Positions 11,453 through 28,794 are shown, counted from the stretch's first letter. The stretch is 32,000 nt of DNA from Gemmata obscuriglobus (GCF_008065095.1 NZ_CP042911.1:6330001-6362000), one strand, 5' to 3'. The notes: generated by a model from the letters alone, not told the origin. Numbers and translations: made by a program.

Positions 11453-11566
11453 CCTTGCCCGGCGTCCGCCGCGCGTTGCAACACCTGCTCCGCCCGTGGG
11501 CCCAGCCGGACTGTGTCCACTGCCGGGCACAGCACTTACATCCGATTCAAATCTAACGGAGTAGTA

Positions 11567-12447
11567 TTAGAAAGGTGCGCGTACACCGGATACCGGTCGG
11601 TCGTGTGGACGGCCGCCGAGCCCGCTCGCAGGTCCTCGAAGGCGCTTCGGCCCCGGGTGTTGCGGATCAGGAAGGCCACCACGAACGTGGTCACGGCCAC
11701 CCACAACCAGGCCCGCTGGCTCCCTTGGGTCCAGCCGGTCTCGTCCACGTTGGCCGGTTGCCCGCGGGCGTAGATCAGGGCGCCCGCGGCCACCGGCTTC
11801 AACGCCTCCGCGGTGCGGTGCTGGAGCTTGCACACCATCGCCGGGCTCAGGGGCAGGGCGAACAGGTCGGCGAACAATTGGCTCGTGCCGCGCTTGCCCA
11901 GGCGGCACGAGCCGGTGAGCATCGCGGCCACCGCCTGAGCCCGGGGCCCATATCCGGTCGCCGCCTCGGCCGGCACCGCCGCCACGGTCGTCGTGCCGCA
12001 GTGCGGGCACCGGAGCCGGTGGCACCGATACTCGGTGACGTGAGGCGTGATGACCGGGATCTCGTGGACCCGATGAACGGCCGGTTGCGGGTCGTCCCCG
12101 GTCAACGGGTGCGCACAGCCCCGGCACGTGGTCGGCTGGAGGGCCCGGATCTCATCGGCCGGCAGCAGGGTGCGTTCCGCCTTGGGGTGCCCCGGTTGGC
12201 CCCCGCGACGCTTGCCCGAGGGCGGCTTGGGCGGGGCCGGTTTCACGTGCGGGGCGTCGGACGAAGGGGGCTTGGACGAGTTGGTGGAGTTCTGGTTGAG
12301 ACGGGCCTCGAGTTCCGCGACGCGGGTGGTGAGCCCGGTCACCTGGGCGGTGAGCTCGGCAATCGTGGCCTCCAGAATGCGGATATACGCCACGACCTGT
12401 GGGGGCAGGTCGCTCGGGAGTTCCGGCGGTTGAGGGACAGGCGTCAT
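11567..12447 (-). pseudogene. IS66-family transposase, N-terminal half (interrupted gene)
   Basis: Coiled-coil leader, then NSTNSSKPPSSD, a Zn-finger-like C..C...CPHCG and the DDE start NVDETGW. The track ORF (to 11536) ends with 10 residues read from the nested IS. Confidence 0.85.
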
Positions 12448-12765
12448 CGCGTCCGTTCAATTACGGAAGACGGGTACTTGAGGCAACCACTCACGGACCT
12501 CATGCAAAAAGCCCTGAAAAACGCAGGGCCAGTCTCCTGTGAACGGTTACGGCAGAGCCAGTCGTCGCGCGCTCATGGCAGCTCCCCAAGGGTAGGTCCA
12601 GTGTCATCACATTGATTCATTGAACGATTGAGCAAGGGCCGACACCGCCAACGTTAAACAATTTGCCGCGTATAGTCAATTAAAAATCAACCGCCCGTTC
12701 ACAATTGTCGATCGCAAGCAAAGCGTGAGCAAGGCCACGGAGACAATTCTGTCACCACGCGAGCG

Positions 12766-13146
12766 TCACTTTGCGGTGATCTTGAAGCGGCCCGCGCCCT
12801 GGACCCGGACTTCCGAGGCCCCGACCGTTTGGACATCGCCACCGTTCCACCAGAGCGTGCCCTGGACCTTCAGCGTGCTGCTGCTCAGGATGCGCCGGCC
12901 CGTGTTCCAGACTTCGAGCTGCGCGTCGGGCGCGATCGTGAGGCTGGCGGCGGCGATCGTGCCGCACCGCCAACTGCCCTTGGCGCCGGTACCCAGCACC
13001 CGCGCCCCGTCCGCCAGGGTGCCTCCCCACTGGTCGAAGGTGGTCGTTACGGTCAGCGTGTGCGTCAGCGCGACGCGGGCCGTGGACGTGCCTCCCAGCT
13101 TCAGCCCTTCCCTTTCCATCATCGCGAAACGGACCATCGGCGTCAC
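12766..13146 (-). CDS. Hypothetical beta-strand-rich protein (Gly/Thr-rich, 'GTL' repeats)
   Basis: Strongly G/C-rich third codon positions in this frame only. Starts are GTG 13146 or ATG 13137, with an in-frame TGA just upstream. I recognise no family. It lies 25 nt from the IS3 left end. Confidence 0.45.
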   Translation of the reverse strand: MTPMVRFAMMEREGLKLGGTSTARVALTHTLTVTTTFDQWGGTLADGARVLGTGAKGSWRCGTIAAASLTIAPDAQLEVWNTGRRILSSSTLKVQGTLWWNGGDVQTVGASEVRVQGAGRFKITAK

Positions 13147-13238
13147 TATTCACAACGATCGCCGCCGGAACAGTATAGTGGACCCCGAAAACTGGACCGC
13201 CGGTTAAGCTATACCGGAGGCCCAGGAAAGGGGAACCC

Positions 13239-13526
13239 ATGGCGGGCAAGCGGAAGAGTCACTCGGCGGCGTTCAAGGCCCAGGTCGCGCTGGCGGCCCT
13301 CAAGGGCGACAAGACCATCAACGAACTGGCGAGTCAGCACGGCGTCCACCCGACCCTGATTCATGGGTGGAAGAAGCAGTTGCTCACCGGGGCCGAGGCC
13401 GTGTTCGCCTCGGGGGCGAAGGGCACCGGCCCCCCGGAAGACAAGACGACCGAGTTGTACGAGCAGATCGGCCGCCTCAAGGTGGAACTCGACTGGGTGA
13501 AAAAAAAATCGGCCGCCCTCGGCTGA
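13239..13526 (+). CDS. IS3-family transposase OrfA (HTH)
   Basis: KRKSHSAAFKAQVALAALKGDKTINELASQHGVHPTLIHGWKKQLL plus a leucine-zipper-like tail ending in the A-run. This is a typical IS3/IS911 OrfA. Confidence 0.9.
   Translation: MAGKRKSHSAAFKAQVALAALKGDKTINELASQHGVHPTLIHGWKKQLLTGAEAVFASGAKGTGPPEDKTTELYEQIGRLKVELDWVKKKSAALG
13500..13508 (+). promoter_or_regulatory. A9 homopolymer at the orfA/orfB overlap (recoding / slippage site)
   Basis: ggtg-aaaaaaaaa-tcgg. The orfB frame opens at 13501, immediately after a TGA at 13498-13500. Confidence 0.6.
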
Positions 13527-14367
13527 GGCCAAGCGTGCCCGGATCGAGGCCGAGCACCCGGAGCTGAGCGTCCGGCGCCAGTGCGAGCTGATCGGATTGA
13601 ACCGCTCGACGGTGTACTACGAGCCGACCCCGGAGAGCGCGGAGAACCTGACGCTGATGCGGTTGATCGACGAGCAGTACACGACGTGCCCGTTCTACGG
13701 GAGCCGGCGCCTGGCCGCGTGGCTGGGCACCCAGGGCCACGAGGTGAACCGCAAGCGGGTGCAGCGGCTGTTGCGGATCATGGGGTTGGAGGCCCTGTAC
13801 CCCAAGCCCAAGCTGTCGGTCGGGTCCGGGCACAAGGTGTACCCGTACCTGTTGCGGGGCGTGGCCATCGACCGGGTCCATCAGGTGTGGAGCACGGACA
13901 TCACGTACATCCCGATGCCCACCGGGTTCATGTACCTGGCCGCAACGATGGACTGGTTCAGCCGGTACGTGGTGGCCTGGCGACTGTCCAACACGTTGGA
14001 CGGGTCATTCTGCCAGGACATGCTGGAGGAGGCCTTGGGCCGGGGCAAGCCGGAGGTGTTCAACACGGACCAGGGAGTCCAGTTCACGGCCGCCGCGTGG
14101 GTCGGGCGATTGGAGCGGGCCGGGGTCGCGGTGAGCATGGACGGGCGGGGCCGGTGCCTGGACAACGTGTTCGTGGAGCGCCTGTGGCGGAGCGTCAAGT
14201 ACGAGGACGTGTACCTCAAGGGTTACGAGTCGGTGCCGGCCCTGGAGAGTGGGCTCCGGGCGTACTTCGGGTTCTACAACACCGAGCGGTTACACCAGTC
14301 CCTGGACTACCGCACCCCGGCTCAGGTGTATGGCGTCGGAGCCACGAAGGCCCCGACGAAACAGTAG
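13501..14367 (+). CDS. IS3-family transposase OrfB (rve/DDE integrase core)
   Basis: The frame opening at 13501 reads KKNRPPSAEAKRARIEAEHPELSVRRQCELIGLNRSTVYY. It continues with HQVWSTDITYIPM...NTDQGVQFTA...DNVFVERLWRSVKYE...YNTERLHQSLDYRTP. The first ATG is at 13597. It is in the +1 frame relative to orfA. Confidence 0.9.
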   Translation, partial: KKNRPPSAEAKRARIEAEHPELSVRRQCELIGLNRSTVYYEPTPESAENLTLMRLIDEQYTTCPFYGSRRLAAWLGTQGHEVNRKRVQRLLRIMGLEALYPKPKLSVGSGHKVYPYLLRGVAIDRVHQVWSTDITYIPMPTGFMYLAATMDWFSRYVVAWRLSNTLDGSFCQDMLEEALGRGKPEVFNTDQGVQFTAAAWVGRLERAGVAVSMDGRGRCLDNVFVERLWRSVKYEDVYLKGYESVPALESGLRAYFGFYNTERLHQSLDYRTPAQVYGVGATKAPTKQ

Positions 14368-14515
14368 CGAAGGATAGCAACTTTTTGGTCTAGACAATGG
14401 GGTCCACTGTACAGCTTAATCTTCGAGCTGCTCAAGACCGGAAAATTTGACCAAACGGATCATGGGGGATACCAAGTGGCTAGAGTAAAATCATTCGAAA
14501 CACTACATAGATTCG

Positions 14516-16663
14516 TCAATTCTTCTGAACTTTCCAGACAAGGACGGTTGTGTCCTCTGAAGCCGTCGCCAACAGAGAGGAGTCAGCACTGAACGCCATT
14601 TCAAGAACTCGCGCCCCGTGCCCCCTCAAGGTGGTAACGAGCTTATACGACGGTATCGCATACAGACGAATCACCGGCACGTTCTTCTCCATCCCGCCGA
14701 CCGCCATCCTCCGCCGATCAGGGCTAAGCAGGAGCGGGCTTGGCGAACTGGCCCCGCCAGTAATCGCCCCCCTAACCGCCCGGTCACCAGTATCAGCCTC
14801 AAACTCACTCACTGTGTATCCACCATCCGACGCATTGTGGAATAGAAGAATCGTCCACCCGTTCCCCAGCACGTGCAGCCCGTCATATGGCCACGGCTGG
14901 AGCCCATCTACCGTATTCTCAGATAGCTTCTCCTTTGTTCGCAGATCCCAGGTGGTGATCTTGAGCGGGTTAGCTGCTCGCGGCCGTGCTCGACCGTTCG
15001 GCTGAATGACTATTAGCCGGGAGCCGTCGGGCGAAAAGCCACAGACGGCTCTTTCCGGGACTTCGACCTCTGGGCTCTTCACCTGCTTACCGGTTTTCAC
15101 GTCGAAAAGAGGAAGATAGGTAGGAGGTGCCCCCTTCTCCCAACGATAGCTACCGCCTCGAACCAAGAACTCGCCCGTCGGCGAATAAACGGTTCGTTCG
15201 TCGGACCTCTCCAGGTTAACCGGCTCGGTTTTCTGAAGCACCCGTCCCGTTTTGAGGTCGCAGATCAGGGCACTACCGCCCCAACGGCCCGCTCGTCCAA
15301 GAACAAACGTGCGGCAGTCCGGGGAAATGGCTTCAACGAACCCGTCGTCTACAAACTCGCTAGGCAGGTCTCGCGGGCGAATGGACACAACCGTCGGCTC
15401 GCCACCGGACAGCGTCCAGTTGAGCGGGCTTGCGATGCCGGCCATGGCCAAATACAGGGATTTTCCATCGGGCGCGAACCGCATTGTCAGTGGCAGGGAC
15501 GGATAACCTGAGACCGGTGTTAAGAAGCGACCCTGCTCGGCATCCCAGGTGGCCACCGCTTCGCCCCACCTTCCGAGTCCGGTCAACCGCCCGTCGGGCG
15601 TGTATTCGATAGCATCCCCCAAGAGTTTACCGCGAGGGACGATGGCGGGCGGCAACTCGGGTGGGGCGTGCGCCGCCCGGTGCTTCCCGGTGGCGGCGTC
15701 CCACACCAGCACTCGGCCAGAGGATTCCAGGTTGGCGACCCACTTGCCGTCCCGGGAGAAGGTCCAAGAAACCGGCCGCGCGGCGCCCACGACCGTTTCG
15801 AGCGAGCACACCTTCTTCTTGGTGCCCAGATCCCAGATGACGCCGTGGCCGTCGCCGTCGACCGCTACGACTCGGGTCGAATCTGAGAAGAACACAACAG
15901 TGCCGGCGTACGTCTCTCCGGTGTCGAGCAAGTACCGCTCACGCCCGGTAGCCACATCCCAGACCTGAATCTGCCCGCACACCGCCGCCGGCGCGTCCGA
16001 GTTCGGGTCTCGCACCCCTTCGGCCCCGCCGGTGACCAGCGTCTTTCCGTTGGGAGAAATGACGGCCCACACCCACGCCCGCTGGACCACCTCGAATTCC
16101 TGAGCCACCACCTTCTCACCGAGTCGGAGCACCATTGCCCGGCCGCTTGCCCCATTCATCTGAGGTCTCTCGCAGCCGAACGCGACGGTGGCCCCGTCCG
16201 CCGACACCGACAAGGGGCTGATGCGGACGCCGTTATCGATGACGGGCAACCCGTCCCAACTCGTCACCTCACGCCCCGAGTTGGTGTCGAATACCCGCAG
16301 CGTTTTACCGTCCACCACGAACAATCGGTTGCCACGCACCACCGGTGGTGACATGTAGACCGGCTCGCGTGCGAAGTAGAACGACCTCTCGATCACACCA
16401 GAGTCGAGGTTCAGTAGCCCGGCTGCGTCGCGGCTGGTCAGCAGCGCCCGGCCATTGGGCGCAAAGCTATCGGGAGCGAAGAAGGGCGCGGTGCGAAACC
16501 GAGCCGTTCCCAAACGGGCCACGGCCCCATTGGGAAGCGGCTCTGGCACGCCCTTAGGCGGCGGCTCGCCCGCCCTCGCGGATACAGGAACAGCGAAAAT
16601 CGTTAAGAACAGGCCCGCAACGGAGGGGCCGTAGAAACGCGAGTTCCCATCTCGGTCGCTCAT
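14516..16663 (-). CDS. Secreted WD40 / beta-propeller repeat protein
   Basis: ATG 16663 gives MSDRDGNSRFYGPSVAGLFLTIFAVPVSARA, which is signal-like. The body has many 'SPDG/SRDG...tg' blades and a canonical final WD40 repeat: LRGHGARVLEMAFSADSSLLATASEDTTVLVWKV. The track ORF extends to 16828. Confidence 0.85.
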   Translation of the reverse strand: MSDRDGNSRFYGPSVAGLFLTIFAVPVSARAGEPPPKGVPEPLPNGAVARLGTARFRTAPFFAPDSFAPNGRALLTSRDAAGLLNLDSGVIERSFYFAREPVYMSPPVVRGNRLFVVDGKTLRVFDTNSGREVTSWDGLPVIDNGVRISPLSVSADGATVAFGCERPQMNGASGRAMVLRLGEKVVAQEFEVVQRAWVWAVISPNGKTLVTGGAEGVRDPNSDAPAAVCGQIQVWDVATGRERYLLDTGETYAGTVVFFSDSTRVVAVDGDGHGVIWDLGTKKKVCSLETVVGAARPVSWTFSRDGKWVANLESSGRVLVWDAATGKHRAAHAPPELPPAIVPRGKLLGDAIEYTPDGRLTGLGRWGEAVATWDAEQGRFLTPVSGYPSLPLTMRFAPDGKSLYLAMAGIASPLNWTLSGGEPTVVSIRPRDLPSEFVDDGFVEAISPDCRTFVLGRAGRWGGSALICDLKTGRVLQKTEPVNLERSDERTVYSPTGEFLVRGGSYRWEKGAPPTYLPLFDVKTGKQVKSPEVEVPERAVCGFSPDGSRLIVIQPNGRARPRAANPLKITTWDLRTKEKLSENTVDGLQPWPYDGLHVLGNGWTILLFHNASDGGYTVSEFEADTGDRAVRGAITGGASSPSPLLLSPDRRRMAVGGMEKNVPVIRLYAIPSYKLVTTLRGHGARVLEMAFSADSSLLATASEDTTVLVWKVQKN

Positions 16664-17149
16664 GATTGCACCAGCGCGAGGCCTATTGTTCAACAATCGC
16701 AGTTGTGCATCGGAATCGACGTAGCTCGCGGCCGAACCGCCGAAACCCACCGGCTTCTTGGTCCGGCCACACCATCTCGGCGTGACTAGACGCAAGGCGC
16801 CTTGACGCGAGTCTATTAAGGGGAGCAACCGCCTAATGCAAAAAGCCGCACAATCACGAGACCATGCACGATCGATATCGCGCGACCGCGTCTAAATTGC
16901 CTCGTAGCTTTTCGTGACGATGGTAATCTCTCCTGCAGAGTCATTCAACAAGATATTTAAAAACGCCAGTCTATTGAGCTGCAGGACCTGGGTGAAATTA
17001 GCGTTTTCACTTCACGGGAGTTGCAGTCATTTAGCAGGCAATACAAGCGACGCCGCATCGCTCATGCACGGAATAATAAAGAAAATATGACACTATTAAT
17101 GATAAAATACTTATAATTTTAATGCTATCGCATTCGATCCCGCTACGGC

Positions 17150-17262
17150 TCATGGGGCCACCAGAAGGCGTGTAGGTGATGGTGCCATCCGGGTTCGCGG
17201 CCGTGGTGCCGAACAGCCCCTCGGACGCGCCGACCACCGTGAGCGGATCGCGGCCCGGGCCG
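17150..17262 (-). pseudogene. Short remnant of a cadherin-like/VCBS-type repeat gene
   Basis: The minus-frame translation GRDPLTVVGASEGLFGTTAANPDGTITYTPSGGP fits the common '..D.LTV......G.....N.DGTiTYTP' repeat phrase. The frame then degenerates into an AT-rich patch at about 17040-17140. Weak evidence from a single motif. Confidence 0.3.
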
Positions 17263-17537
17263 GCAGTAACCCATCCGATACGGCAGCATGAACGGGATCG
17301 ACGCGAATCGGCACTCAGCCGCCGGGTTACCCGAGCAGGCCGTTGAAGAAGCCACTATCGAAACCCCGAAAACACAATTCTTGGCTACCCACACTTTGCA
17401 CGATTTCGTGTCCGCGATCGGCCAAGAGTTCGCCGGTGGACAGGCGCCGGCCTGTCCAAGGCGGTGCGTCCGCTTGGGATGGAGCCGGCACCGCCGGAGG
17501 CTCCCGACCTGATTGGATAGCTCCGGCGGTCTGCAGT

Positions 17538-18872
17538 TCAGGGCTTCTTCTCTTCGTGGTTGTGCTCGTGCTTCTTCCGATCGGCGTAATACTTCAGTTG
17601 CCCGAATGTGCGGACCTTCTCAGACGTCTTCTTCGCATCGTCCGCGATCTCCTTGACCGAGGCCAGCGCCGTCGCGCTTTCCTTGAGTGCACTGAGGGCC
17701 GCTTCGGATTCCTGTAAACCCGCGAGAGCGAGCCCCTGTGCCGCGGACACCGACAGTTCGGCCGTCAGTTCCTCCTCCGTTGGGGGGATCACCGCGGCGT
17801 CCCCCACCGCCTTGGGGTTCGCGGCCATGACCGCGGCGGCCCGCGGCGCGGCCACCTTCTTCACCATGGACGGTTTGCTCGCCATTTCCTGCAGGTACTC
17901 CAGTGCGACCTTATTCTTCGACTTGTGAATGAGGTCGCCGAGGTGGATCAGGACGGCGTTCTTCGCCCGAAACTCATCCGCCCCAGACCGCTCGCTCTTG
18001 ACGAACTTAATGAGCGGCTCGACGGCCTTCTCGTCGGCGATGAAGCACAGGGTCGTGACGATCTCCGGAAGGTGCTCCTTCTCGGCCGGGTCGTCGAGCA
18101 TCTTCAGCAGCGTCTCGACGGCACCCTTGTACTTGTCCTGGTCTCGGAGCTTGACGGCGATCTCGAACGGGACGCCCTCGGGGTAGTGCCTGCGGACGAA
18201 CTCCTTAACATCCTTCGGATCGGGGAGTGGTTGCTCTGCGGCCACAGCAGCCCCGGCGGTGAGTGCGGCCGGGCCGTTGCGGTACCGGTTGGACTCGGGC
18301 AAGCTCACCACCCGGTGGGTCGAGCCGATGCTCGGGAACATGACCGCATTTGGGTCGTCCGTGCGGTGACTCAGGCCGCAGTTGTGCCCGTACTCGTGGA
18401 CCCACAGGATGCCTTCGAGGGCCGGGGTGAACCGGACGGCCCCGATGTTCACGACCGGACTGCCCACCGGGGCGCACCCGATAATCGATCCGCCCGGCCC
18501 GCCGCAGAAGTTGATGGCGCGGACGATCTTAACCCCGCTTGGGGCGTTGAACAGGGCGTTCAACTGGGCCTGCGTTTGGATGACGGCGGCGACGTTTGCC
18601 GGGAGCAGTTGGACGCTCCCGTCACGGACGAACGTGACGGGCGTGGTGACGTCCTTGCTCGTGTCCTTCGTCTGGAGGACGTTGCCCATGCTGGCCAGGG
18701 CCGCATCGGCCTCGGCGTTCGTGAGCGAGACCGACTTGTGGCGGAACACCTTGACCTTGACGGCTTTGGCCGCTTCTGCACCGTCCTTGGTTACGCCCCC
18801 GGCCCCGCCGACGGCGACGGCCCCGCAGGCCATCAGGGCGAACGCGACCCCGGCACGATACTGGCATCTCAT
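17538..18872 (-). CDS. Secreted metzincin-type zinc metallopeptidase with a C-terminal HEAT-like helical region
   Basis: ATG 18872 gives MRCQYRAGVAFALMACGAVAVGG, which is signal-like. HEYGHNCGLSH matches HExxHxxGxxH, followed by a Met-turn-like AVMFP. The C-terminal ~230 aa is helical and repeat-like (AVETLLKMLDDP...AVEPLIKFV) and ends in KKHEHNHEEKKP. Confidence 0.8.
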   Translation of the reverse strand: MRCQYRAGVAFALMACGAVAVGGAGGVTKDGAEAAKAVKVKVFRHKSVSLTNAEADAALASMGNVLQTKDTSKDVTTPVTFVRDGSVQLLPANVAAVIQTQAQLNALFNAPSGVKIVRAINFCGGPGGSIIGCAPVGSPVVNIGAVRFTPALEGILWVHEYGHNCGLSHRTDDPNAVMFPSIGSTHRVVSLPESNRYRNGPAALTAGAAVAAEQPLPDPKDVKEFVRRHYPEGVPFEIAVKLRDQDKYKGAVETLLKMLDDPAEKEHLPEIVTTLCFIADEKAVEPLIKFVKSERSGADEFRAKNAVLIHLGDLIHKSKNKVALEYLQEMASKPSMVKKVAAPRAAAVMAANPKAVGDAAVIPPTEEELTAELSVSAAQGLALAGLQESEAALSALKESATALASVKEIADDAKKTSEKVRTFGQLKYYADRKKHEHNHEEKKP

Positions 18873-19368
18873 CACGGCACTCCTTACGAAATGGGAGAGG
18901 CACGGTCCTCCGACCCCGCATGGGGCAGGCTGTATTGAGGGACGCAACGCCGCGTCCAGACATGGTGGCTTAGGCAATCAGCCAAATCGCAGTTGCCATT
19001 CCGCAGACGCCGACGGCTCAGCCGCTGACGCATTTACGGTCTGCGTTCGCCTCACTGAACCTAACAATGGGGTCTATCACCGTTTGTTCGCCTCCCGGCT
19101 TCCACCGAGGACGAGTGTGAAGTCCGAAATGGCGGTTAATGTGGTGACGGTTGACGAGTTGCTTTCCCTGCGGGGCTCGACTACGTGCTGGACAGACTCG
19201 TCTGCTCTCAAAGGCCAGACATTTTACCTGCTGAAATGACCTGCCGACAATCAGGCGACTGCCCAGGAAGGAAGGTCTCGTGGGCAGTGACGCAAGCCGT
19301 GAAAGGTGCTGGGTGAGCGACCGCGAGTTCAGGCTCAGGCCGAGTTGGTAACGTATCCTTCGCTGCAG

Positions 19369-19397
19369 AACCCCAGCCCCTTCCATGGGCTGGGGTT
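19369..19397 (-). terminator. 11-bp hairpin about 100 nt downstream of the DUF1559 gene (putative operon terminator)
   Basis: aaccccagccc / loop cttccat / gggctggggtt. On the minus strand it is followed by TTCTGC. The function is inferred. Confidence 0.4.
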
Positions 19398-19496
19398 GCG
19401 ATTTGCCGGCTACAGCCGTCACCGATCCGACCACGCACCCGTCGCCGGACGAGCACGATCCCGTTCTCCGTCAGGCACAAGATGGGGGGGAGAGGC

Positions 19497-20501
19497 TTAC
19501 TCTTCACTCGCGACCACCTCGCCCCCGCTTCGGGTGCCAAGCGCACGCCAAGTCTCGAACGCGATCGAGTCCCGGACGAACCGCACGGAGCCGTCGGCGA
19601 AGCACACGTTCACACCGCCGCTGTGGTAGCTGCGCGCGGCGAGGTGGAATTGGTCCGCGCTCTCGATCATGCAATCTCGACCAGTATAGTTTGGCAAAAA
19701 AGTGTGCGTGTACAGGGCGGTCTGCGGGGCGCCGCGATAGAACTGTAACCCGGTGATGTTCTCGGTTTTCACGGCCGTGTTACAGAACGAAACGAGCGAA
19801 GCGGAAGGGGTTCTGTTATTGGGGTTCGTTGCCGGGTTCCCCACTCCCCACACGGGAAGGGGAACAAGAGTCACGTCGAATCGGTTGTGATCCGGGCTCG
19901 CGCCCCGTACAACTTCGGCGAATAGAACCGTGTTGCTCGTCCCGTCCGTGATTCCGGCCAAAGAGATCCGAAAGGCATTCCCGAACACCCCCGCGAGCGA
20001 TGGGGGCTTGATCACAGTTCCGCGACTGTCCTGCCACCACCCATGCGCGCCCGCATTGCCAAAGTAGTTGCTCCGTCCGGACTGTCCTGCCGTAACACCG
20101 AACGGTGAGTTTTGATCAACGTACATTCCATTTGATGGATCGGCCGGGCAAAGGTAAATCGGCACATCGCCAACGCGGCCAGTGTAATTATCCGGATGTG
20201 AGAAAACGTTCCGCAGCAAATCAAACCGTTGAAACCGCGCGTCCTGTTCGACGTACTGGAGGAGTTGGAGTTGAACGGAGGCGTAGGCAGGTGGACCCGT
20301 GGCCCCGGCTGGGAACGTACCGACCGCTGCTGTAAAGTTGTGCGCAGCCTTGCCCATTTGAGCCAAGTTGCTGGCACACTGGATCCGGGCAGCTGCCCCT
20401 CGCACCTTCTGGACGGCGGGAAGGAGCAGCCCGATGAGGACCGCAATGATCGCGATCACCACCAGTAATTCAATGAGCGTGAACGCGCCACGGGATCTCA
20501 T
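19497..20501 (-). CDS. DUF1559-type protein with prepilin-like N-terminal methylation motif and H-X9-DG motif
   Basis: [34 protein letters not shown] is a type IV pilin-like leader. The C-terminal part has [17 protein letters not shown], which is H-X9-DG. This family is hugely expanded in Planctomycetes. A TTG at 20507 is an alternative start. Confidence 0.9.
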
Positions 20502-20576
20502 AGTCAAGCACCTTTGGCAACCAAAAGCATCGCTCCAACCCTCAACGCATCTCGGCGCCCAATAATTTATTTATTG

Positions 20577-21212
20577 TCACATTGTCGATATGTTTCGCGG
20601 CGTAGCCGTATCTACATTAGAATCCAATGCATTCAGCACGTAATTATGACTTCCACTGTCGAGCGAAGGAAACACCGCGATCCAGAAGCTATTAGACAGG
20701 CTACTGAACAATGATTCAGCAAGAATTGTCCTACCCCCCTCCGCCAGCCAGACAGACACAGCATCGTGTGAGAGCGGACCATAGGCCACGAAGTAATCCC
20801 TTTCATCCGATATGTCGGCATTTGGAGCGGGATACTCGAATTCAATGAACTTTTCGCCCCATAGACCGTTGGACTCAAACTGGACCTGCTTAACCAACTC
20901 AATACCGTTCTGAGCATTGACTTTACTCAAGTACAAAGTGTGGACACCGCTTGAAATCCTCCTCTCATCATCACCAAACAGTGTAAAATAGTACCGATTC
21001 CCGTCGCCATCTGTGTACATCCAGGCTGCAGTACCCGGGATTGCCTTCTGCTCCCTGGGCGGCGCATCGAGCGTCGCGACGATGCCGACGATGTCCGGTT
21101 CGTCTCGAATCCGTACGGCCGATATGAACAAACCCGGCACACGCCTGTCACGCCCTCCGTTGGGCCGATCATCTCGGTTGCATACGGTCGGATGTTTAAC
21201 TTCGATCGGCAT
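20577..21212 (-). CDS. Hypothetical protein, lower-G+C orphan with no recognisable motif
   Basis: A 211-codon ORF in a visibly A/T-richer stretch. AAGGAG (21221-21226) lies 8 nt upstream of the ATG. No signal peptide is apparent. It sits between the kinase and DUF1559 genes on the same strand. Confidence 0.65.
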   Translation of the reverse strand: MPIEVKHPTVCNRDDRPNGGRDRRVPGLFISAVRIRDEPDIVGIVATLDAPPREQKAIPGTAAWMYTDGDGNRYYFTLFGDDERRISSGVHTLYLSKVNAQNGIELVKQVQFESNGLWGEKFIEFEYPAPNADISDERDYFVAYGPLSHDAVSVWLAEGGRTILAESLFSSLSNSFWIAVFPSLDSGSHNYVLNALDSNVDTATPRNISTM

Positions 21213-21244
21213 TCTCGGTTCTCCTTACTACTTGGAACTACTCA

Positions 21245-23374
21245 CTACTTCTTGCCAAGCGGCGTCACCGTGACCCGGTCGAAGAATGCGGACGCCCTCA
21301 CCACATACAGGCCCAATCCACCGCGGGGCACGAAGTTGGGCCTCAGGTCGCGCACGAACGGGTTGTCACGGTGCCGTTCGGCCCTTCGGATGAGGTCTGT
21401 GGCGGTGGATAAGTTCAGATCCCAATCACGAACGGCAATCGAGAACTTCTGGCCGTCCCATTCCGTGATGAGTTCATCGGGGCCGACGGTGACCTCAATG
21501 TTGTGCCATTCGCCTCGTGTCTCGTCTTCCAATTTCGACCCCACCGGCCCGAGCCCTTTCACGTCCAGCGCCGGCGGGACGTCCGGCTCGGAAAGCAACA
21601 CCGGGTTCATCGTCACCTGTTTCGTCGGCACCAGGGTCCGATGCGATCCGTTCGGTCGGACGACCTCCACTTTGGGTGGCGCGGACACGTCGTCGAAGGA
21701 GACCCGGGTCAGCACGTGGATGTCGCTACCTCCACCGGGGTGGGCACACCGCCCGACGTAAAGCCCCACCGAGGGCGCGCCGCCAAGATCACGGGTGTGT
21801 TTCACGCGGGCCGCGACTCGATACTGACTCATTTGCGGATCGGACAGGAGTTCGAGCAGGGCGACCGATTTCGTTTCGACCTCAAAGTACCCGTCCAGTT
21901 TGGTGTTCGTTCTGCTTGCGGTCTGCCCCATTTTCCACCGGAACCACCTCGGCTTGCCTGTTTCGCCAATCAGGGTGACCGCCTGTCCCGGCGCCGCCCG
22001 CGCCACTTCGGCCTCGATTTCTTTGCGAGTCTCGTCGGTTCCTTCCTCTTGCGGCTGCTCACCCGTGGGCGAGCCCAGGTAAAGCGCGCCCCCGACCGCA
22101 CCGCCAAAGGTAAGAACCACCGCGCCCGCCGCGACCGACCCGCGACGCGCGTTCCGTCGTACCCACCGCATTGCGCGCCGGGCGCGCGTCAGCGGGCGGG
22201 CCTCGGTTGATTCGCCCCGGAGCAGCCGGCCGAGGTCGTCGGCCAGCGCCTGAGCCGACTGGTACCGCCAACTGGGGGGCGCCTCCAAGCACTTCAGACA
22301 AACGGCCTCCAGGTCGGGCGAGATCTGCCTGCGGAGCCGGGACGGCGGAATCACGTTCCCCTCTCGGACCAGGGCGAGGATTGCGTCTTTCGAGTCGGCC
22401 ATGAACGGCGGCACCCCGGTGAGCGTCTCGTACAAGATCGCACCGAGCGCGTACACGTCCGTCCGCTCGCCAATCTCGCTCGTGCGCCCCGCCGCCTGCT
22501 CCGGGGCCATGTAGCTCGCCGTACCCATCACCGCGCCGGTTTCGGTCAGTTGGGCCCCGCTCTCGTCGAGCAGTTTCACCAGACCGAAGTCAGCAATCTT
22601 CATGATGCCGTCGGACCCAATCAGTACGTTCGCCGGCTTGAGATCGCGGTGCACAACTTTTTGCTCGTGGGCGTACGCAACGGCCCCCGCCAGGGTTTGG
22701 ACCTTCTCGGCCGCATCCAGTGGCGCGAGCGAGCCGCCCGCTTTCAGCTTGTCCGCCAGGCTCCCCCCCTCCACCAGTTCCATCGTGAAATAGGGCCGGC
22801 CGTTGTGGTCATCGAAGTGGTGGAACTGAACCACGTTCGGATGCTGCAGCCGCGCCAGGACTTTACCCTCGTTGCAGAACCGCGTGAGCCCATCCGGCCC
22901 CACGGCGAGTATGTCCCGGATTGTCTTCAAAGCGACGACTTGTTTCAGCGGTCGCCGTTCCGCGCGGTACACCACTCCCATCCCGCCACTCCCGATTTCC
23001 TCCAGCAGTGTGTAGCGCCCGAACGTCGTTCCAACCCGAATCTCCCCGGATGACCGGCCCGCCTCCCGATCTTTCGGTTCCGCGTTCAGCGGGTCGGAAC
23101 CGCCCGCGATCATCCCGCCCGCAGCGAGCAGCTCCGAGCCGCCCGTCGATTCGAGCCTCTCGCGCAACCAGGCGTCGAACCCGTTCTTCGCCGCGCCTTC
23201 AATCTCGGCTAGCGCGGCGAGGCAGGCCTCACAAGTCGAGAGGTGGTGGTCGACCGCCTCCAGGTCCGGCTCCGCCAACCGGCCGCTGCTGAACGCGGCC
23301 AACGTTTCCCGATCGGGGCATCGGTCGGGGTCAGCGGGTGTGGCGACTAAAAACATCGCGCGCCTCCGAGTCAA
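21245..23374 (-). CDS. Ser/Thr protein kinase with an N-terminal ZAS-like zinc-finger (anti-sigma-like) segment, one TM helix and an extracytoplasmic C-terminal domain
   Basis: Kinase motifs are present: GSGGMGVVY, ALK, HRDLKPANVLI, DFG, SYMAPE. The N-terminus has HLSTCEAC, which is H-x3-C-x2-C. A hydrophobic segment VAAGAVVLTFGGAVGGALYL is followed by ~270 aa of beta-rich sequence. TTG 23374 overlaps the sigma gene stop; ATG 23356 is an alternative start. Confidence 0.9.
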   Translation of the reverse strand: MTRRRAMFLVATPADPDRCPDRETLAAFSSGRLAEPDLEAVDHHLSTCEACLAALAEIEGAAKNGFDAWLRERLESTGGSELLAAGGMIAGGSDPLNAEPKDREAGRSSGEIRVGTTFGRYTLLEEIGSGGMGVVYRAERRPLKQVVALKTIRDILAVGPDGLTRFCNEGKVLARLQHPNVVQFHHFDDHNGRPYFTMELVEGGSLADKLKAGGSLAPLDAAEKVQTLAGAVAYAHEQKVVHRDLKPANVLIGSDGIMKIADFGLVKLLDESGAQLTETGAVMGTASYMAPEQAAGRTSEIGERTDVYALGAILYETLTGVPPFMADSKDAILALVREGNVIPPSRLRRQISPDLEAVCLKCLEAPPSWRYQSAQALADDLGRLLRGESTEARPLTRARRAMRWVRRNARRGSVAAGAVVLTFGGAVGGALYLGSPTGEQPQEEGTDETRKEIEAEVARAAPGQAVTLIGETGKPRWFRWKMGQTASRTNTKLDGYFEVETKSVALLELLSDPQMSQYRVAARVKHTRDLGGAPSVGLYVGRCAHPGGGSDIHVLTRVSFDDVSAPPKVEVVRPNGSHRTLVPTKQVTMNPVLLSEPDVPPALDVKGLGPVGSKLEDETRGEWHNIEVTVGPDELITEWDGQKFSIAVRDWDLNLSTATDLIRRAERHRDNPFVRDLRPNFVPRGGLGLYVVRASAFFDRVTVTPLGKK

Positions 23375-24033
23375 CCCGCGGCGTCTGATCCCGTGGCAGG
23401 GCGCGGGGCTCCGTCCTCGGGCAGGTCCACCAGTTCGCCGAACTCCTCCAGAAGGCGGTGGAGCACTCGGGACTTCGCGAGGTACACTGAATGCACCCGG
23501 ATACCCAATTCCTGTGCCACATCTTCCGCCCGCTGCCTGTCGATCATGTACCGCCAGAACGCCTGCCGGGTGCGGTCCTTGAACCCGGCCAGGGTCAGCT
23601 CGACCGCCTGACGCAGCACGATCCGCTCTTCGACCGCGTCAGCATCCGCGCCCCCGCCTCGCTCGGGCCGCTCGGGAACGGAGAGGAGCTCTCGCTGCGC
23701 GTCGCTCCCGCCGACGGCCGGGATCTGGCGGGCGTTGCGCCGCCGATGGTCATGGGCCTTGTTCCGGGTGATCATCCGCAGCCAGCCACGCAGCGTGTCT
23801 CCCGGTTGGTCGTGACGGAACCGGTCCATCGCCCGGTCAGCGGCCAGGAACACATCCTGGGACACGTCCTGTGCGTCGTGAGGCCGCAGGCCGTCCTGCT
23901 GGCACCAGTACAGGACCAGGGGCCGGTACAGCGCCTCGAACCGCTCCCACGCGCCGGGGGTCCGCGCGCGCACCCCGGCGAGCAGCGTGGACGAGGTCGT
24001 CTGCCCACTGACGCGAACGCGCCTGTCTATCAC
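23371..24033 (-). CDS. ECF-type RNA polymerase sigma factor (sigma-70 regions 2 and 4)
   Basis: Region 2: YRPLVLYWC...DAQDVSQDVFL...LRGWLRMITRNKAHDHRR. Region 4: RQAFWRYMIDRQRAEDVAQELGIRVHSVYLAKSRVLHRL. GTG start with AGAGG upstream. Confidence 0.9.
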   Translation of the reverse strand: MIDRRVRVSGQTTSSTLLAGVRARTPGAWERFEALYRPLVLYWCQQDGLRPHDAQDVSQDVFLAADRAMDRFRHDQPGDTLRGWLRMITRNKAHDHRRRNARQIPAVGGSDAQRELLSVPERPERGGGADADAVEERIVLRQAVELTLAGFKDRTRQAFWRYMIDRQRAEDVAQELGIRVHSVYLAKSRVLHRLLEEFGELVDLPEDGAPRPATGSDAAG

Positions 24034-24301
24034 GGCTGCCTCTGAAATCGGATATCAGACGGATGAATGGCTGAATTATTTCCTCCGCGCGGCTTTGAAC
24101 GCAAGTGAAAAATTTGCGCAACCGCAGAATCGTATGGGCACAGGCCACTCGGACCGTTTCACGGTTCGGAATTCGGAGGCCGGGTGATAGACCTCGTGTT
24201 CAGGGAAGTGAGCACCCTACCGGCCAGCCCCGCCGCAGGTCCACGCGGCTACCGCGCGGCCGCACCCTGGCGGGCGGTGCCCCTTCTCACAGGTGATCCC
24301 C

Positions 24302-26890
24302 ATGGCCGTGTCCAAGCTCGTCGATTCAGGGCAGCCGTTCGTGAACGAGCCGGACATCCAGCGCACGACCTTCGCGGTCGATGCGCCGGGGCGGTTCTTC
24401 TGCAACACGTGGGACGAGGCCGTCAGCGCGCAGCAGGGCCGTCCGTTCGATGTCGTGATCGTCGGCTCGGGCATGTACGGCGGGTACCTGGCGGCCAAGC
24501 TGTACGAGTTCGGCGGGGACCTGCCCGAGGCCGACCGCCCCCGGGTGCTGGTGCTGGAGTCCGGCCCGTTCCTGCTCGCCGAACACATCCAGAACCTGAC
24601 CGGGATGGGGGACGCGTTTGACCTGCCCGCCCGCGACCTGATCGACGAGGCGACGCAGGGGCGTGGGGACAAGATCGACCCCGGCCGGCTGTTCGTCCGG
24701 CACCACCGGTGCGTCGGCGGCAAGTCCCCGTTCTGGGGCGGCTGGGCCCCGCGGCTGACCGAGGAGGACCTGGCGCAGTGGCCGGCCGAGGTCCGGGAGT
24801 ACCTGCTCCAGGCCGGCCGGCCCGACGGGTACGAGTACGTCGAGCGGGAAATCGGGGCGCGGCCGACGGCCGACTTCATGAGCGGCAAGCTGCTCGACGC
24901 CCTGCTCGCGCGCGTGAGGGAGTCGCTCCCCGGCGACCCGCGCCTGGCCTTCGTGGATGACGCCCCCATCGCCGTGCTCGGCCAGTCGCCGGGGTCCGGC
25001 CTGTTCAGCATGGACAAGTTCAGCAGCCTGGCCCTGCTGCTCTCGGCGGTCCGGGACGACATCGGCCGGGCGAAGAACAAGGGCGGGGACGCGGCCCGGC
25101 GGCTGTTCCTGGTACCAAACGCCGAGGTGCTGCGGCTGGAAACGCAGAGCGGGGCGGTCCGGCAGGTGGTCGCCGCGCTGCGCGACTTCGCCGAGCCGGA
25201 GAACCGGAGCCGGGCGCGAGTGGTCCGGTTGGACGTGCAGCCCGGCGCGGTCGTGGTTCTGGCCGGGAACACCGTGAACTCCACCCGGCTGGCCCTCAAC
25301 TCGTTCCCCCGACCGCGGCAGATGTCGCCGACCGGGGAGCTGATGGGCCGCAACCTGATGGCCCACGTCCGGAGCAACTTCATCTGGAAGGTCGACCGGA
25401 AGAAGCTGATCGGCGACACCGTGCTGGGCACCAACCTCCAGACGGCGGCGCTCCACGTCCAGGGCGCGGCGAACACCGCGAAGGGCCGCGGGCGGTTCCA
25501 CTTCCAGTTCTACGCCGCCCCGAACATGGACACCAACGCATTCCCGGGCGCTTCGAACAACCCGGAGGAGTTCCTCTATCGAATGGTCCCGAGCGTCGAG
25601 GAGTACGAGCGGATGCTCAAGGCCCAGGAGGGGCTGGGCACCCGCATCGTAGTCGGCATCCGCACGTGCGGGGAAACGTTTGGGGACAAAACCACTCCGG
25701 TCGACACGAGCAACGCGGTGAGCTGGATGAACGTCAGTCCGTTCGGCGGCGCCGGGGACGACGTGTACGTCGAGGGCGGGCGGGAGGTGCGCGTCCCGAA
25801 GGCGTTCGCCAACCTGGTCGAGACGGCGGCCGACCGGCAGGTCCGGGACGCCCAGGACGGGGCCGCGTTCGCGCTCATCGAGCGGCTGACCGGGCTGCCG
25901 ACCGGTGCGGCCGGGAGCCGCGACCCGGCCGCACCGGTCGAGCTCATCGCCGAGAACAAGGACCGGATCGGGACCACGTTCCACGACTCCGGCACCCTCT
26001 GGCTCGGTGCCGACCCGGCCGCGTCGGTGACCGACGTCAACGGCCGGTTCCACCACGTCGCCAACGCCGCGTGCGTGGACCAGGCCATCTTCCCGACGGT
26101 CGGGTCCGCCAACCCGGTGCCCACCGGCTTGGCCCTCGCCCGGAAGGCCGCCCGGGCCATCATCGACCGGCACCGGCCGGCCCCCCCGCCGGCCGGGGGC
26201 GAAGCGGGGTTCGAGCCCCTCTACAAGGGCGACTTCGCGGCGGACGGGTGGAAGTACGCCGGGCCGCGGTTCGACGGCCAGGTGCCGTTCTTCGACGTCC
26301 AGGTCGGCGGGCCGGTCCTCGGGGCCGGGGTCGGCAGCCCGTTCTTTGACAGCGTGCTCGGGGTCCTCTGGTTCTCGAAGCGAACGTTCCGGGATTTCGT
26401 CCTTCGGCTGGAGTGGCGGACGTTCGACGGGGCCGCCAACGCCGGGGTGCTTCTACGGGCGCCCGAGCCGGCCCAACTCGACGCGGACCACTTCTACAAC
26501 TCGGCGGTCGAGGTGCAGATCGACGAGCGCGGGTTCGCCTTCGATGCGACCAATCCGGGGAACAGCTTTTACGGAAGTCCGCTCCACCGAACGGGCGCCG
26601 TGTACGGACTGTTCCCCGCCCGGTCGTGGGCGGCCAAGCGGGTGAACTCCCGGGTCCCGGGTCGGGACGCGTACTGGAACCTGTTCGAGATCACCCTTCG
26701 GGGGCCGAACGTCGAAGTGCGGCTGAACGGCCAGATCGTGTCGGGCGGGACGCTCCAGAACCCGCTGCCGGCCGGGGCCGCGAACGCCCCGAACACCGAC
26801 CCGGCCCGCAAGCGGTCGGACGGGTTCCTCGGCCTCCAGTGCCACACCGAAGTCGTTCAGTTCCGCAACATCCGGGTGAAAACCCTGTAA
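24302..26890 (+). CDS. GMC-family FAD oxidoreductase fused to a C-terminal DUF1080 (3-keto-disaccharide hydrolase-like) domain
   Basis: The N-terminal part has FDVVIVGSGMYGG, a Rossmann GxGxxG motif. The GMC C-terminal signature is HDSGTLWLGAD...VTDVNGRFHHVANAACVDQAIFPTVGSANPVPT. From about nt 26200: GWKY...FRDFVLRLEWR...NAGVLLRAP...EVQIDE...TGAVYGL...WNLFEITLRG..VEVRLNG...GFLGLQCH...VQFRNIRVK, the DUF1080 pattern. AGGTGA lies before ATG 24302; GTG 24293 is an alternative start. Confidence 0.85.
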   Translation: MAVSKLVDSGQPFVNEPDIQRTTFAVDAPGRFFCNTWDEAVSAQQGRPFDVVIVGSGMYGGYLAAKLYEFGGDLPEADRPRVLVLESGPFLLAEHIQNLTGMGDAFDLPARDLIDEATQGRGDKIDPGRLFVRHHRCVGGKSPFWGGWAPRLTEEDLAQWPAEVREYLLQAGRPDGYEYVEREIGARPTADFMSGKLLDALLARVRESLPGDPRLAFVDDAPIAVLGQSPGSGLFSMDKFSSLALLLSAVRDDIGRAKNKGGDAARRLFLVPNAEVLRLETQSGAVRQVVAALRDFAEPENRSRARVVRLDVQPGAVVVLAGNTVNSTRLALNSFPRPRQMSPTGELMGRNLMAHVRSNFIWKVDRKKLIGDTVLGTNLQTAALHVQGAANTAKGRGRFHFQFYAAPNMDTNAFPGASNNPEEFLYRMVPSVEEYERMLKAQEGLGTRIVVGIRTCGETFGDKTTPVDTSNAVSWMNVSPFGGAGDDVYVEGGREVRVPKAFANLVETAADRQVRDAQDGAAFALIERLTGLPTGAAGSRDPAAPVELIAENKDRIGTTFHDSGTLWLGADPAASVTDVNGRFHHVANAACVDQAIFPTVGSANPVPTGLALARKAARAIIDRHRPAPPPAGGEAGFEPLYKGDFAADGWKYAGPRFDGQVPFFDVQVGGPVLGAGVGSPFFDSVLGVLWFSKRTFRDFVLRLEWRTFDGAANAGVLLRAPEPAQLDADHFYNSAVEVQIDERGFAFDATNPGNSFYGSPLHRTGAVYGLFPARSWAAKRVNSRVPGRDAYWNLFEITLRGPNVEVRLNGQIVSGGTLQNPLPAGAANAPNTDPARKRSDGFLGLQCHTEVVQFRNIRVKTL

Positions 26891-26916
26891 CGTCCGTCCC
26901 CGCGAGGAGACCCAGC

Positions 26917-28794
26917 ATGCAGACCCGATCCCGGGCCCAGTGGGCCGCCGTTGCATCCTTTGTCGCGGCATCCCTGGTTGCCGGCGGCGCCATCGACGGT
27001 CAAGACGAGAAGAAGGACGACAAGCCCGTGAGCCCGGGCGCCGCCGCGCCGTCGGCGGTCCGGCGGGTCGCGGTGACGCCCCTGAAGGAGCGCAGCCCGA
27101 CCGGCGGCCCGGTGATGGAAGTGCGGCTCCCGGGCGCCGAAAAGCGCCTGGTCCGAGGGTCGGTAACGCAGGACATCAAAATTCCCGAGAGAGGCGTCCC
27201 CGCGGGCGAACCGACGCAGCGAGTGTCGATCGGCCCGGACGAATTGTACCAGGACCAGAAGCGCTACGAAGAGGACCTCCTGAAGGTGGGCGAGTTCGTC
27301 GACTTCTCGGACCGCAGCCGGCACAAACTCGCCCCCAAGGACGCCAAACAGTGGCGGGCGGTCAAAACGCCGGTCGGTCGGGAGACGCAACTGCCGCCGT
27401 ATCTCGGCTCCCCGGTCCTGTGCGAGGAGGACATCCAGACGCTCAGCGAGCGGTGCCTGATGATCCGGGACCCGGCCGTCGTTGACGACCGGCGGGCCAA
27501 GGGCACCGGTGCCTGGTCCTTCGGTCACCTGATGACCGAGATGGCCAACGAGAAGGCGACCGGCATCAAGCCGTCCGATTTCGTGCTCCGCTGGCTTGAG
27601 CACTGGGAGCGGGATCAGAACGTCAACGGGTGCCGGATCGACAACCGCCGGGACGGCATCCGGGCGCTCGTCATCGACCCGTGGCAGGAGGCCAGCGGCG
27701 GCCCGGGCAAGCCGCTGGACCTGGCCAAGGCCCCGTTCCGGCTGATGGCCATCATCAACCGCCTCGACCTGAGCAGTAACGCGGTTCTCGGGGTCGACCG
27801 GATCGGGGACGGCGGGGCCGGTGAGGCACGCCTCATGTTCTGCGCCCTCGACACGCGAAAAGAGAAAGACCTCGACAAGGCACCGCCAGCGCTGTTCACC
27901 GTCATCTTCGAGTACGGGATCAAGCGGAAAAGCTTGCAGGGTGTCAAGGACTGGGCGGAAAGCTGGTACGAGCTGCGGCTCCACGACCCGAAGACGGACG
28001 CGTACAAGGCACGCCTGGAGCGGCTCACCGAGGAATTCGTTCGGGCCGGGGCAGACCCGGAGTGCCCGCCGAACCGCAGCGCACTGGCTCAGCTGCGGAC
28101 GAATGAAATCGCACTGGACCTCGTGGCGAGTGAGTTGGGGGTGGAACTCGACCGGATCGACGGGCTCCCCCGGCCGCTGTGGGAGCTCCGCGAGTTCGTC
28201 GTCAACACCCACGACGACGGGTTCCTATACCAGGTCACGGTCAAGCAAACGCCCCGGCTCGCCCTCCGGGGCGGGGCGGCGAACCCGACCGGTGGGCAGC
28301 GGCTCGCCGAGTACGTGAACGTCCCGGCGAACCTGGACGCCATCCTGAACGAGCGCCACCGGCTGCCCGTGCAGTTCCCCGCGGGTCGGCCGTTCGTGGA
28401 CGGGGCCTCGATCACCCCGTTGGACTTCTTCTGGGATGCGCCGGGGATCAAAGACCCCAAGGCCCGGCACTTGCTGTCACTTGCGACGTGCAGCGGGTGC
28501 CACGCGGGCGAGGCGTTCCCCCGGGTGAATAAGCCCGGCGCGACGTTCACGCACCTGTTCCCCCTCACCCGGGTCGAGGGCCGGGCGGCCGAAGTGTCCC
28601 CGTTCCTGAGCGGCAAGGGGGCCGACGGGAAGGAGTTCGCCTTGCCGGACCCGGCCGGCGCGAAGGGGCCGGACGGGAAGGTGATCGAGCGGAAGTTCGC
28701 CGACCTGGAGCGGCGGGCGTACTTCCTGCGCGACTTCGTGCGGTACTTCCTCTACTACCAGCTCAACCGCGTCCCGATCCAGAACGTCCACTGA
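26917..28794 (+). CDS. Secreted/anchored protein of unknown function with a single C-terminal CxxCH motif
   Basis: GAGGAG lies 7 nt before the ATG. The N-terminal hydrophobic segment is WAAVASFVAASLVAGGAI. CSGCH is at nt 28489-28503. The track ORF from 26413 is an out-of-gene upstream extension overlapping the previous CDS. Confidence 0.8.
   Translation: MQTRSRAQWAAVASFVAASLVAGGAIDGQDEKKDDKPVSPGAAAPSAVRRVAVTPLKERSPTGGPVMEVRLPGAEKRLVRGSVTQDIKIPERGVPAGEPTQRVSIGPDELYQDQKRYEEDLLKVGEFVDFSDRSRHKLAPKDAKQWRAVKTPVGRETQLPPYLGSPVLCEEDIQTLSERCLMIRDPAVVDDRRAKGTGAWSFGHLMTEMANEKATGIKPSDFVLRWLEHWERDQNVNGCRIDNRRDGIRALVIDPWQEASGGPGKPLDLAKAPFRLMAIINRLDLSSNAVLGVDRIGDGGAGEARLMFCALDTRKEKDLDKAPPALFTVIFEYGIKRKSLQGVKDWAESWYELRLHDPKTDAYKARLERLTEEFVRAGADPECPPNRSALAQLRTNEIALDLVASELGVELDRIDGLPRPLWELREFVVNTHDDGFLYQVTVKQTPRLALRGGAANPTGGQRLAEYVNVPANLDAILNERHRLPVQFPAGRPFVDGASITPLDFFWDAPGIKDPKARHLLSLATCSGCHAGEAFPRVNKPGATFTHLFPLTRVEGRAAEVSPFLSGKGADGKEFALPDPAGAKGPDGKVIERKFADLERRAYFLRDFVRYFLYYQLNRVPIQNVH

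Follow-up and report, generated by a model that had tools for sequence, protein, structure and literature searches.

How is a sigma factor of the extracytoplasmic function (ECF) type controlled when the gene next to it encodes a protein kinase? A planctomycete genome typically holds ECF sigma factors by the dozen and about 100 Ser/Thr kinases, yet for kinase-linked sigma factors control has been worked out only in group ECF43, whose logic differs from the one proposed here. We examined this question at a locus of Gemmata obscuriglobus, lying within a stretch of 32,000 nucleotides (6,330,001-6,362,000 on one contig of 9.0 Mb with 67% G+C), which is called the window below and to which all coordinates refer. 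Four genes stand there in series on the minus strand, as the initial annotation, made from the sequence alone, had described with all the features that it listed; in 5' to 3' order they encode an ECF sigma factor, a receptor Ser/Thr kinase, a protein of 211 amino acids (aa) and a DUF1559 protein. By profile and by predicted fold, the N-terminus of the kinase is a true class I zinc-binding anti-sigma (ZAS) domain, for which binding of zinc and of the sigma factor is predicted. We argue, giving the proposal slightly better than an even chance, that the four genes make up a signalling cassette in which this built-in anti-sigma domain would hold the sigma factor and the kinase would modulate that hold.

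The anti-sigma domain is encoded at 23147..23320 on the minus strand and covers kinase residues ~13-70, residues being counted from the ATG at 23356. Its putative zinc ligands follow the pattern C13-x24-H38-x3-C42-x2-C45, the last three forming the H-x3-C-x2-C motif (HLSTCEAC) at 23222-23245, and the spacing C-x24-H-x3-C-x2-C is that of RsrA and ChrR. Residues C13, P14, H38, C42 and C45 are invariant in seven full-length orthologs of 42-45% identity, and the four ligands, like the residues of helix 1, are invariant in all 25 aligned orthologs and paralogs, the paralogs being 20-35% identical. When the domain profile was compared with the PDB, the six significant sequences were all ECF anti-sigma factors (DdvA at E-values of 5.1e-7 and 8e-6, RslA at 2.6e-4, ChrR, which has two entries, at 1.2e-3 and RsiW at 4e-3), and nothing beyond ECF anti-sigma factors appeared under E=2. 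The Pfam model zf-HC2 (PF13490) was matched by 19 of the 25 members at E<0.1, with 5.7e-6 as the best value. AlphaFold2 modelled residues 1-110 of the kinase with helices at 16-23, 29-41 and 43-70, at a predicted local distance difference test score (pLDDT) of 88-96 and of 91-96 over residues 11-50, while a fourth helix was predicted weakly. With this model as query, Foldseek placed RsiW, ChrR and RslA, all solved bound to their sigma factors, in positions 1-12, with a probability of up to 0.99 and a root-mean-square deviation of 1.5-2.2 Å over ~50 columns. The invariant ligands, the PDB profile, the AlphaFold2 fold and the Foldseek ranking thus bear out the ZAS finger which the initial annotation had proposed for the kinase N-terminus, and profile and fold evidence likewise agree with its claim that finger and intact kinase sit in one polypeptide.

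A database gene call for the kinase (685 aa) begins later than this ATG and removes the first cysteine, C13. The kinase gene spans 21245..23356 on the minus strand and encodes 703 aa from the ATG at 23356, an alternative TTG lying at 23374. The TGA stop codon of the sigma gene does overlap this TTG, as TTGA, as had been noted initially, but the suggestion that the TTG is the start fares less well. Translation probably begins at the ATG, because GGAGG stands 6 nt 5' of it and because the seven full-length orthologs begin ~12 residues ahead of the first cysteine.

The link between the anti-sigma domain and an ECF sigma gene upstream of it is a tight one. We counted 104 kinase open reading frames in the same genome, 11 of them with the full motif ahead of the kinase domain; an ECF sigma gene lies directly upstream on the same strand in 10/11 motif-bearing kinases as against 14/93 others (Fisher p = 7e-7, paralogs not being independent). 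The ten partner sigma factors form one coherent paralog group; the 12 distinct sigma factors beside motif-less kinases are heterogeneous. Examples of the latter, of other types, are encoded at G000:C1:6061064-6061627 and 6852156-6852812, and in several of them uncharged residues replace the acidic motif of region sigma2.2 (e.g. LQPTALVHEAF), which fits a separate, putatively phosphorylation-activated class within this genome. Searched with the domain profile, 1.84 billion cluster representatives yielded 20,499 proteins at E<=1e-3; among the top 147 of these, 30 have a kinase domain, 34 repeat the motif 3-5 times in tandem and the remainder are short. The 34 tandem-motif proteins (P0158-P0160, P0162, P0169 and others) are 300-460 aa long and have 3-5 tandem H-x3-C-x2-C units with no kinase, an arrangement of repeated ZAS-like modules that is not familiar to us.

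Behind the anti-sigma domain the polypeptide continues with a linker, the kinase domain, a transmembrane helix and an outside domain. The Hanks-type kinase domain (22238..23014, minus strand; residues ~115-373) scores 176.7 bits against the Pkinase model (PF00069; cut-off 31.7), with the lysine (K144), the HRD aspartate (D238), the DFG aspartate (D256) and the APE motif intact; no catalytic residue varies among the aligned orthologs, and they conserve a T-E-T activation loop as well. A hydropathy scan finds a single transmembrane helix at 22073..22144 (minus strand; residues ~405-428). It is preceded by the Arg-rich stretch RRAMRWVRRNARRG, from which, by the positive-inside rule, we infer a topology with the N-terminus in and the C-terminus out, so that the last ~265 residues would lie outside the membrane. 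These residues (~440-703; 21248..22039 on the minus strand) form a predicted beta jelly roll, the putative extracytoplasmic sensor domain, modelled by AlphaFold2 at pLDDT 95 and a predicted template-modelling score of 0.91. The Pkinase score, the hydropathy profile and the C-terminal fold together uphold the earlier description of a Hanks kinase with one transmembrane helix and an outside domain.

For the outside domain the nearest structures in Foldseek are DUF1080 proteins, or 3-keto-glycoside eliminase-hydratases (E ~1e-6, template-modelling score, TM-score, 0.38-0.48), followed by GH16, PL7 and galectin-like proteins. Assignment to DUF1080 (3-keto-disaccharide hydrolase, PF06439) by sequence was tried and rejected, as seven members gave no Pfam match at E<=1 and an hhalign comparison with the DUF1080 domain encoded by a neighbouring gene returned a probability of 0.2. 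Because the TM-scores stay below 0.5 and hhalign fails, we call the modelled domain a concanavalin A-like jelly roll whose fold is closest to DUF1080 without being a member of it. The sensor family is present in 87/201 genomes of the order Gemmatales and in 0/400 other genomes of a phylum-wide sample, and is thus specific to Gemmatales within the sample searched; it is found nearly always within reading frames of ~620-800 aa. Tandem arrays were seen in two places (G509:C155:1-13000, L053, and G509:C165, L051), where two to three kinases share the jelly-roll outside domain; the L053 kinases are without the zinc motif and without a sigma gene, and at L051 a single sigma gene stands upstream of two motif-bearing kinase copies.

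The sigma gene itself (23371..24033, minus strand) begins with GTG and encodes 220 aa, its M-x-D start being confirmed by the ortholog alignment. It matches Pfam Sigma70_r2 at 4.6e-15 (55.6 bits) and the ECF superfamily model TIGR02937 at 65.2 bits over residues 28-197 (cut-off 42.9), which, with regions sigma2 and sigma4 only, places it among the ECF (group 4) sigma factors, as the initial annotation had it; for two NCBIfam subfamilies of planctomycetes, TIGR02989 (42.8 against 124.6) and TIGR02984 (29.2 against 183.8), its scores lie under the cut-offs. Three features bear on its control, namely an N-terminal T12-T13-S14-S15-T16-L-L, the sigma2.2 motif D53-A-Q-D56 and the linker G-G-S110-D. 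The acidic D-A-x-D of sigma2.2 is retained in all orthologs, and D..D in 10/10 paralog partner sigma factors. The sigma factor does not resemble those of ECF43, a group that the initial annotation had cited as kinase-linked, and because the acidic motif is kept, phosphorylation as a charge switch at sigma2.2 is unlikely in this sigma factor. The N-terminal T-S-x-S/T-L-L, common to the orthologous sigma factors, and Ser110 of the linker are candidates only for phosphorylation sites.

The relatives that carry the same genes belong to the Gemmataceae. We compared seven metagenome contigs with kinase orthologs and 20 Gemmataceae genome loci, and used 24 orthologous loci for the flanking genes. On 7/7 contigs the kinase is followed by a Pfam-less gene of ~200 aa (197-234 aa in six, and cut off after 138 aa in L056, where the contig ends). 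A sigma gene upstream of the kinase is confirmed in 5/7, the other two contigs (P0089 and L056) breaking within the gene upstream of the kinase, and the DUF1559 gene comes next in both contigs that reach far enough (P0112 and P0089). The full four-gene order is found in most of the 20 genome loci. Homology, fold and synteny lead us to read the four genes as a transmembrane signalling cassette that is complete in itself and is kept across Gemmataceae. Its members diverge at different rates: against the L001/L002 cassette the kinase is 44-45% identical, the sigma factor 49% (L002) and the DUF1559 protein 54% (L001), but the third protein shows 29% identity along 70 residues, one third of the whole, and so falls well below its neighbours at 44-54%.

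The third gene (20577..21212, minus strand; 211 aa) is preceded by an AAGGAG ribosome-binding site. The initial annotation had taken it for an orphan, and the window protein found no match in family-model scans; homologs nevertheless occupy the same slot across loci (L001, L034-L050 and L054-L056), with pairwise E-values of 1e-6 to 5e-10 and one homolog 55% identical, so that the orphan label does not stand. An alignment of 18 members describes two tandem beta-rich halves, without a signal peptide or transmembrane helix; the family had no match in the PDB and only scattered weak Ig-like matches in Pfam, and the halves are possibly Ig-like. In the window the gene has a lower G+C than those adjoining it, and its third codon position has a G+C fraction of 0.57. 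A recent horizontal origin of this low-G+C gene was considered and rejected, because its G+C lies below that of the kinase in 19/19 loci and is thus a trait of the family. The gene is a conserved, fast-evolving member of the cassette, and the DUF1559 protein may have in its product a partner that is hypervariable and possibly under diversification.

The last gene, of the DUF1559/HX9DG prepilin-like type (19497..20501, minus strand; 334 aa from the ATG at 20501, the open reading frame being listed as 19497-20507), encodes a protein with a prepilin-type N-terminus (G-FTLIELL), a DUF1559 body and a C-terminal H-X9-DG. It scores 133.1 bits against PF07596 (cut-off 23.3), 28.1 against N_methyl (21.2) and 41.9 against TIGR04294 (19). 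Syntenic DUF1559 copies match at 1e-73 to 1e-116 as compared with ~1e-29 to 1e-31 for unrelated paralogs, which marks the DUF1559 genes of the cassettes as orthologs. In the genome of the window a DUF1559 gene follows a motif-bearing kinase in 2/11 cases, and 3/140 DUF1559 genes follow a kinase of any kind, so that the DUF1559-kinase linkage is specific to the ortholog group of the cassette. Both the 211-aa gene and the DUF1559 gene are kept together with the sigma-kinase pair and make the best candidates for its regulon, in line with what the initial annotation had suggested for these two downstream genes.

Taken as a working scheme, the cassette could operate in the following way. At rest the zinc-bound anti-sigma domain would keep the sigma factor at the membrane, a sigma factor with an intact acidic sigma2.2 being otherwise expected to bind RNA polymerase; it is because this motif is kept that we prefer sequestration by the anti-sigma domain. 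The kinase would be switched by a ligand, in all likelihood a glycan, acting on the outside domain, and phosphorylation would alter the hold on the sigma factor. The phosphorylated target might be the sigma factor itself (the N-terminal T-S-x-S/T-L-L or Ser110 of the linker) or the kinase's own anti-sigma and linker region, after the example of PknB, which phosphorylates the ZAS anti-sigma factors RshA (partner of SigH) and RseA (partner of SigE) and so frees the ECF sigma factor (reviewed in PMC8999054). The released sigma factor would then transcribe its own operon, including the 211-aa gene and the DUF1559 gene as the likely outputs. In its fullest form the proposal would make one polypeptide the receptor, the kinase and the anti-sigma factor at once, with a sigma factor released by (auto)phosphorylation switching on the DUF1559 protein and its hypervariable partner upon contact with an envelope glycan; this we put forward tentatively, as possible rather than probable.

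Three other explanations share much of the same evidence. The N-terminal domain might serve for docking only, recruiting the sigma factor as a substrate whose phosphorylation, at Ser110 or at the N-terminal Thr/Ser residues, is the on-switch, as in the ECF43 pairs EcfP/PknT and EcfK/PknS. That the neighbouring kinase phosphorylates the sigma factor has indeed been demonstrated for ECF43 pairs, linker sites of EcfK included (PMC13147305), PknS likewise has an N-terminal region of 3-4 helices whose role is unexplained (PMC13147305), and the sigma orthologs here keep both T-S-x-S/T-L-L and the G-G-S/T/D linker position. But with D-A-x-D present in every ortholog, and its counterpart in all the paralog partners, these sigma factors are without the sigma2.2 defect that makes ECF43 members dependent on phosphorylation, and the nearest relatives of the domain are all inhibitory anti-sigma factors, so we regard docking alone as unlikely. 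Alternatively the two modules might be uncoupled, a conventional membrane-tethered anti-sigma factor being freed through proteolysis or through oxidation of thiols at the zinc site while the kinase acts on the 211-aa protein or on unlinked proteins. Membrane-bound ZAS factors with large extra domains do work without a kinase (DdvA with its CHAT domain, RsiW and RslA), and zinc sites can serve as redox sensors in ChrR and RsrA (PMC7406223); the lack of a conserved phospho-acceptor in the anti-sigma domain, taken up below, also fits. Against it stand the invariant catalytic residues of the kinase and the fusion itself, whose recurrence with very different outside domains, in 11 paralogs here and in no fewer than 30 of the top 147 representatives, argues for joint action of both cytoplasmic modules; an uncoupled arrangement is, in our estimate, quite improbable.

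The zinc motif might, at the extreme, be a vestige or a structural cap that does not bind the sigma factor, the adjacency of the two genes reflecting co-expression only. This explanation draws on three findings that weigh against our own proposal as well: the window kinase, at 18.0-19.9 bits, falls below the zf-HC2 cut-off of 22.2; two ZAS-bearing orthologs (L035 and L045) have no adjoining sigma gene; and kinases of the sensor family with other N-termini exist, among them the closest sensor homolog, P0121 (72% identical), whose different N-terminus indicates that sensor and N-terminal modules shuffle. Upstream of the motif-bearing kinase of L035 (6600-9500, G589) the sigma gene is missing and unrelated genes, one of them for a large P-loop-like protein, stand there, which suggests an insertion or rearrangement. 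Four ligands and helix-1 residues that stay invariant at such low identities, the strong association with an upstream sigma gene and a fold matching sigma-bound anti-sigma domains are hard to reconcile with a vestige, and we consider one very improbable.

The proposal that the built-in domain holds the sigma factor has further points to its debit. Foldseek gave weak E-values (0.4-3), as is to be expected of a domain of ~50 residues, though with a clean ranking. The ortholog alignment shows no invariant Ser/Thr in the anti-sigma domain or the linker, and at the G-G-S/T position of the sigma linker Ser or Thr is found in 11/18 orthologs, the others having Asp or lacking the position. Co-transcription of the four genes we infer from their spacing. 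The initial annotation had also proposed to look for a promoter motif shared by the sigma gene and paralogous loci; dyad and k-mer counts, an expectation-maximisation motif finder and pattern tests, applied to 16 ortholog and 9 paralog upstream regions, found no significant one. These regions contain a weak A/T-rich (G/C)AAATTTT-like element at variable distance, which was not significant, and GGAAAT-N16-CGTC occurs in 2/16, likewise not significantly. In the window the latter stands at -50 and CAAATTTTT at 24108-24116, two candidate promoter sites upstream of the sigma gene, neither of them established, in the intergenic region (24034..24292) where the promoter would be expected.

The remaining features of the locus concern its borders. 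The gaps of 32 nt between kinase and third gene and of 75 nt between the latter and the ATG at 20501 are confirmed by the coordinates. The hairpin reported after the last gene is present (19369..19397, minus strand; 11 bp, G+C-rich, ~100 nt past the last stop codon), but it has no U tract, a terminator scan did not detect it and its region is not more structured than shuffled sequences (z = -0.7), so that it is possibly a non-canonical terminator; an Rfam search of window positions 17000-27000 gave zero matches. On the plus strand, a gene running divergently from that of the sigma factor (24293-26890) encodes an 865-aa protein in which a GMC oxidoreductase is fused to a DUF1080 domain. The divergent redox cluster, which the initial annotation had considered as part of the regulon, and the downstream metzincin were tried as parts of the unit and rejected, since neither occurs in any of the 24 orthologous loci; and because this neighbour is not conserved with the cassette, the DUF1080 likeness that it shares with the sensor domain is probably coincidental. 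Farther off, a low-G+C stretch (0.52) at 8001-9000 lies within 6300-17300, a region initially described as rich in insertion sequence (IS) elements.

If the proposal is right in its fullest form, it would explain how those kinase-linked ECF groups of planctomycetes are regulated that have been described as having no anti-sigma factors, and a DUF1559 family member would for the first time have a defined regulator and a defined cue. The built-in anti-sigma domain offers a concrete and easily testable model for a large family, represented by 11 copies in the genome studied and by 30 or more kinase fusions within the top 147 matches, and the conserved linkage gives a rare experimental handle, with a likely regulator named, on DUF1559, a very large family of unknown function.

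Our literature search found no description of an anti-sigma/kinase fusion, though as Jogler 2012, Wiegand 2020 and the supplements of Casas-Pastor 2021 were outside it an earlier mention is possible. In the class I anti-sigma survey of Casas-Pastor 2020, 132 subgroups were dropped on account of other Pfam domains unlike those of anti-sigma factors, a step that may have removed such fusions. The reclassification of ECF sigma factors (Casas-Pastor 2021, PMC7826278) lists ECF43, 59-62, 217, 267 and 283 as kinase-linked and typically without anti-sigma factors, and among them the planctomycete groups ECF59, ECF61, ECF62 and ECF217, formerly ECFSTK1-4, whose mechanism is uncharacterised (PMC7826278), resemble the present locus in gene order, a planctomycete ECF sigma gene with a Ser/Thr kinase gene at +1; the window kinase differs in that it carries an anti-sigma domain itself. 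In the ECF43 systems EcfP/PknT of Vibrio parahaemolyticus and EcfK/PknS of Xanthomonas citri the sigma gene also adjoins that of a transmembrane Hanks kinase, and PknS, with ~80 N-terminal residues and 3-4 predicted helices ahead of its kinase domain (PMC13147305), resembles the window kinase in layout. However, ECF43 sigma factors are without the acidic sigma2.2 (DAED) and are activated by phospho-Thr there, whereas D53-A-Q-D56 is kept here, and a zinc motif is reported for neither PknS nor PknT.

The classical pairs ChrR/SigE, RslA/SigL, RsiW/SigW and RsrA/SigR provide the best sequence and fold matches, and share with the window kinase the H-x3-C-x2-C motif with a fourth ligand ~25 residues upstream, the three-helix core and a gene directly after that of the cognate ECF sigma factor; none of these anti-sigma factors has a kinase domain. 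DdvA of Myxococcus xanthus, partner of the ECF sigma factor DdvS (PMC11506125) and the best PDB sequence match, is likewise a single-pass protein with an N-terminal ZAS domain and a large enzyme-like domain, but its extra domain is a periplasmic CHAT protease-like one instead of a cytoplasmic kinase, and its output consists of CBASS and CRISPR-Cas genes. The mechanism proposed here is modelled on Mycobacterium tuberculosis, where the Hanks kinase PknB acts on the ZAS factors of the RshA/SigH and RseA/SigE pairs; kinase and anti-sigma factor are separate, unlinked proteins in that system, whereas in G. obscuriglobus the two are found in one polypeptide.

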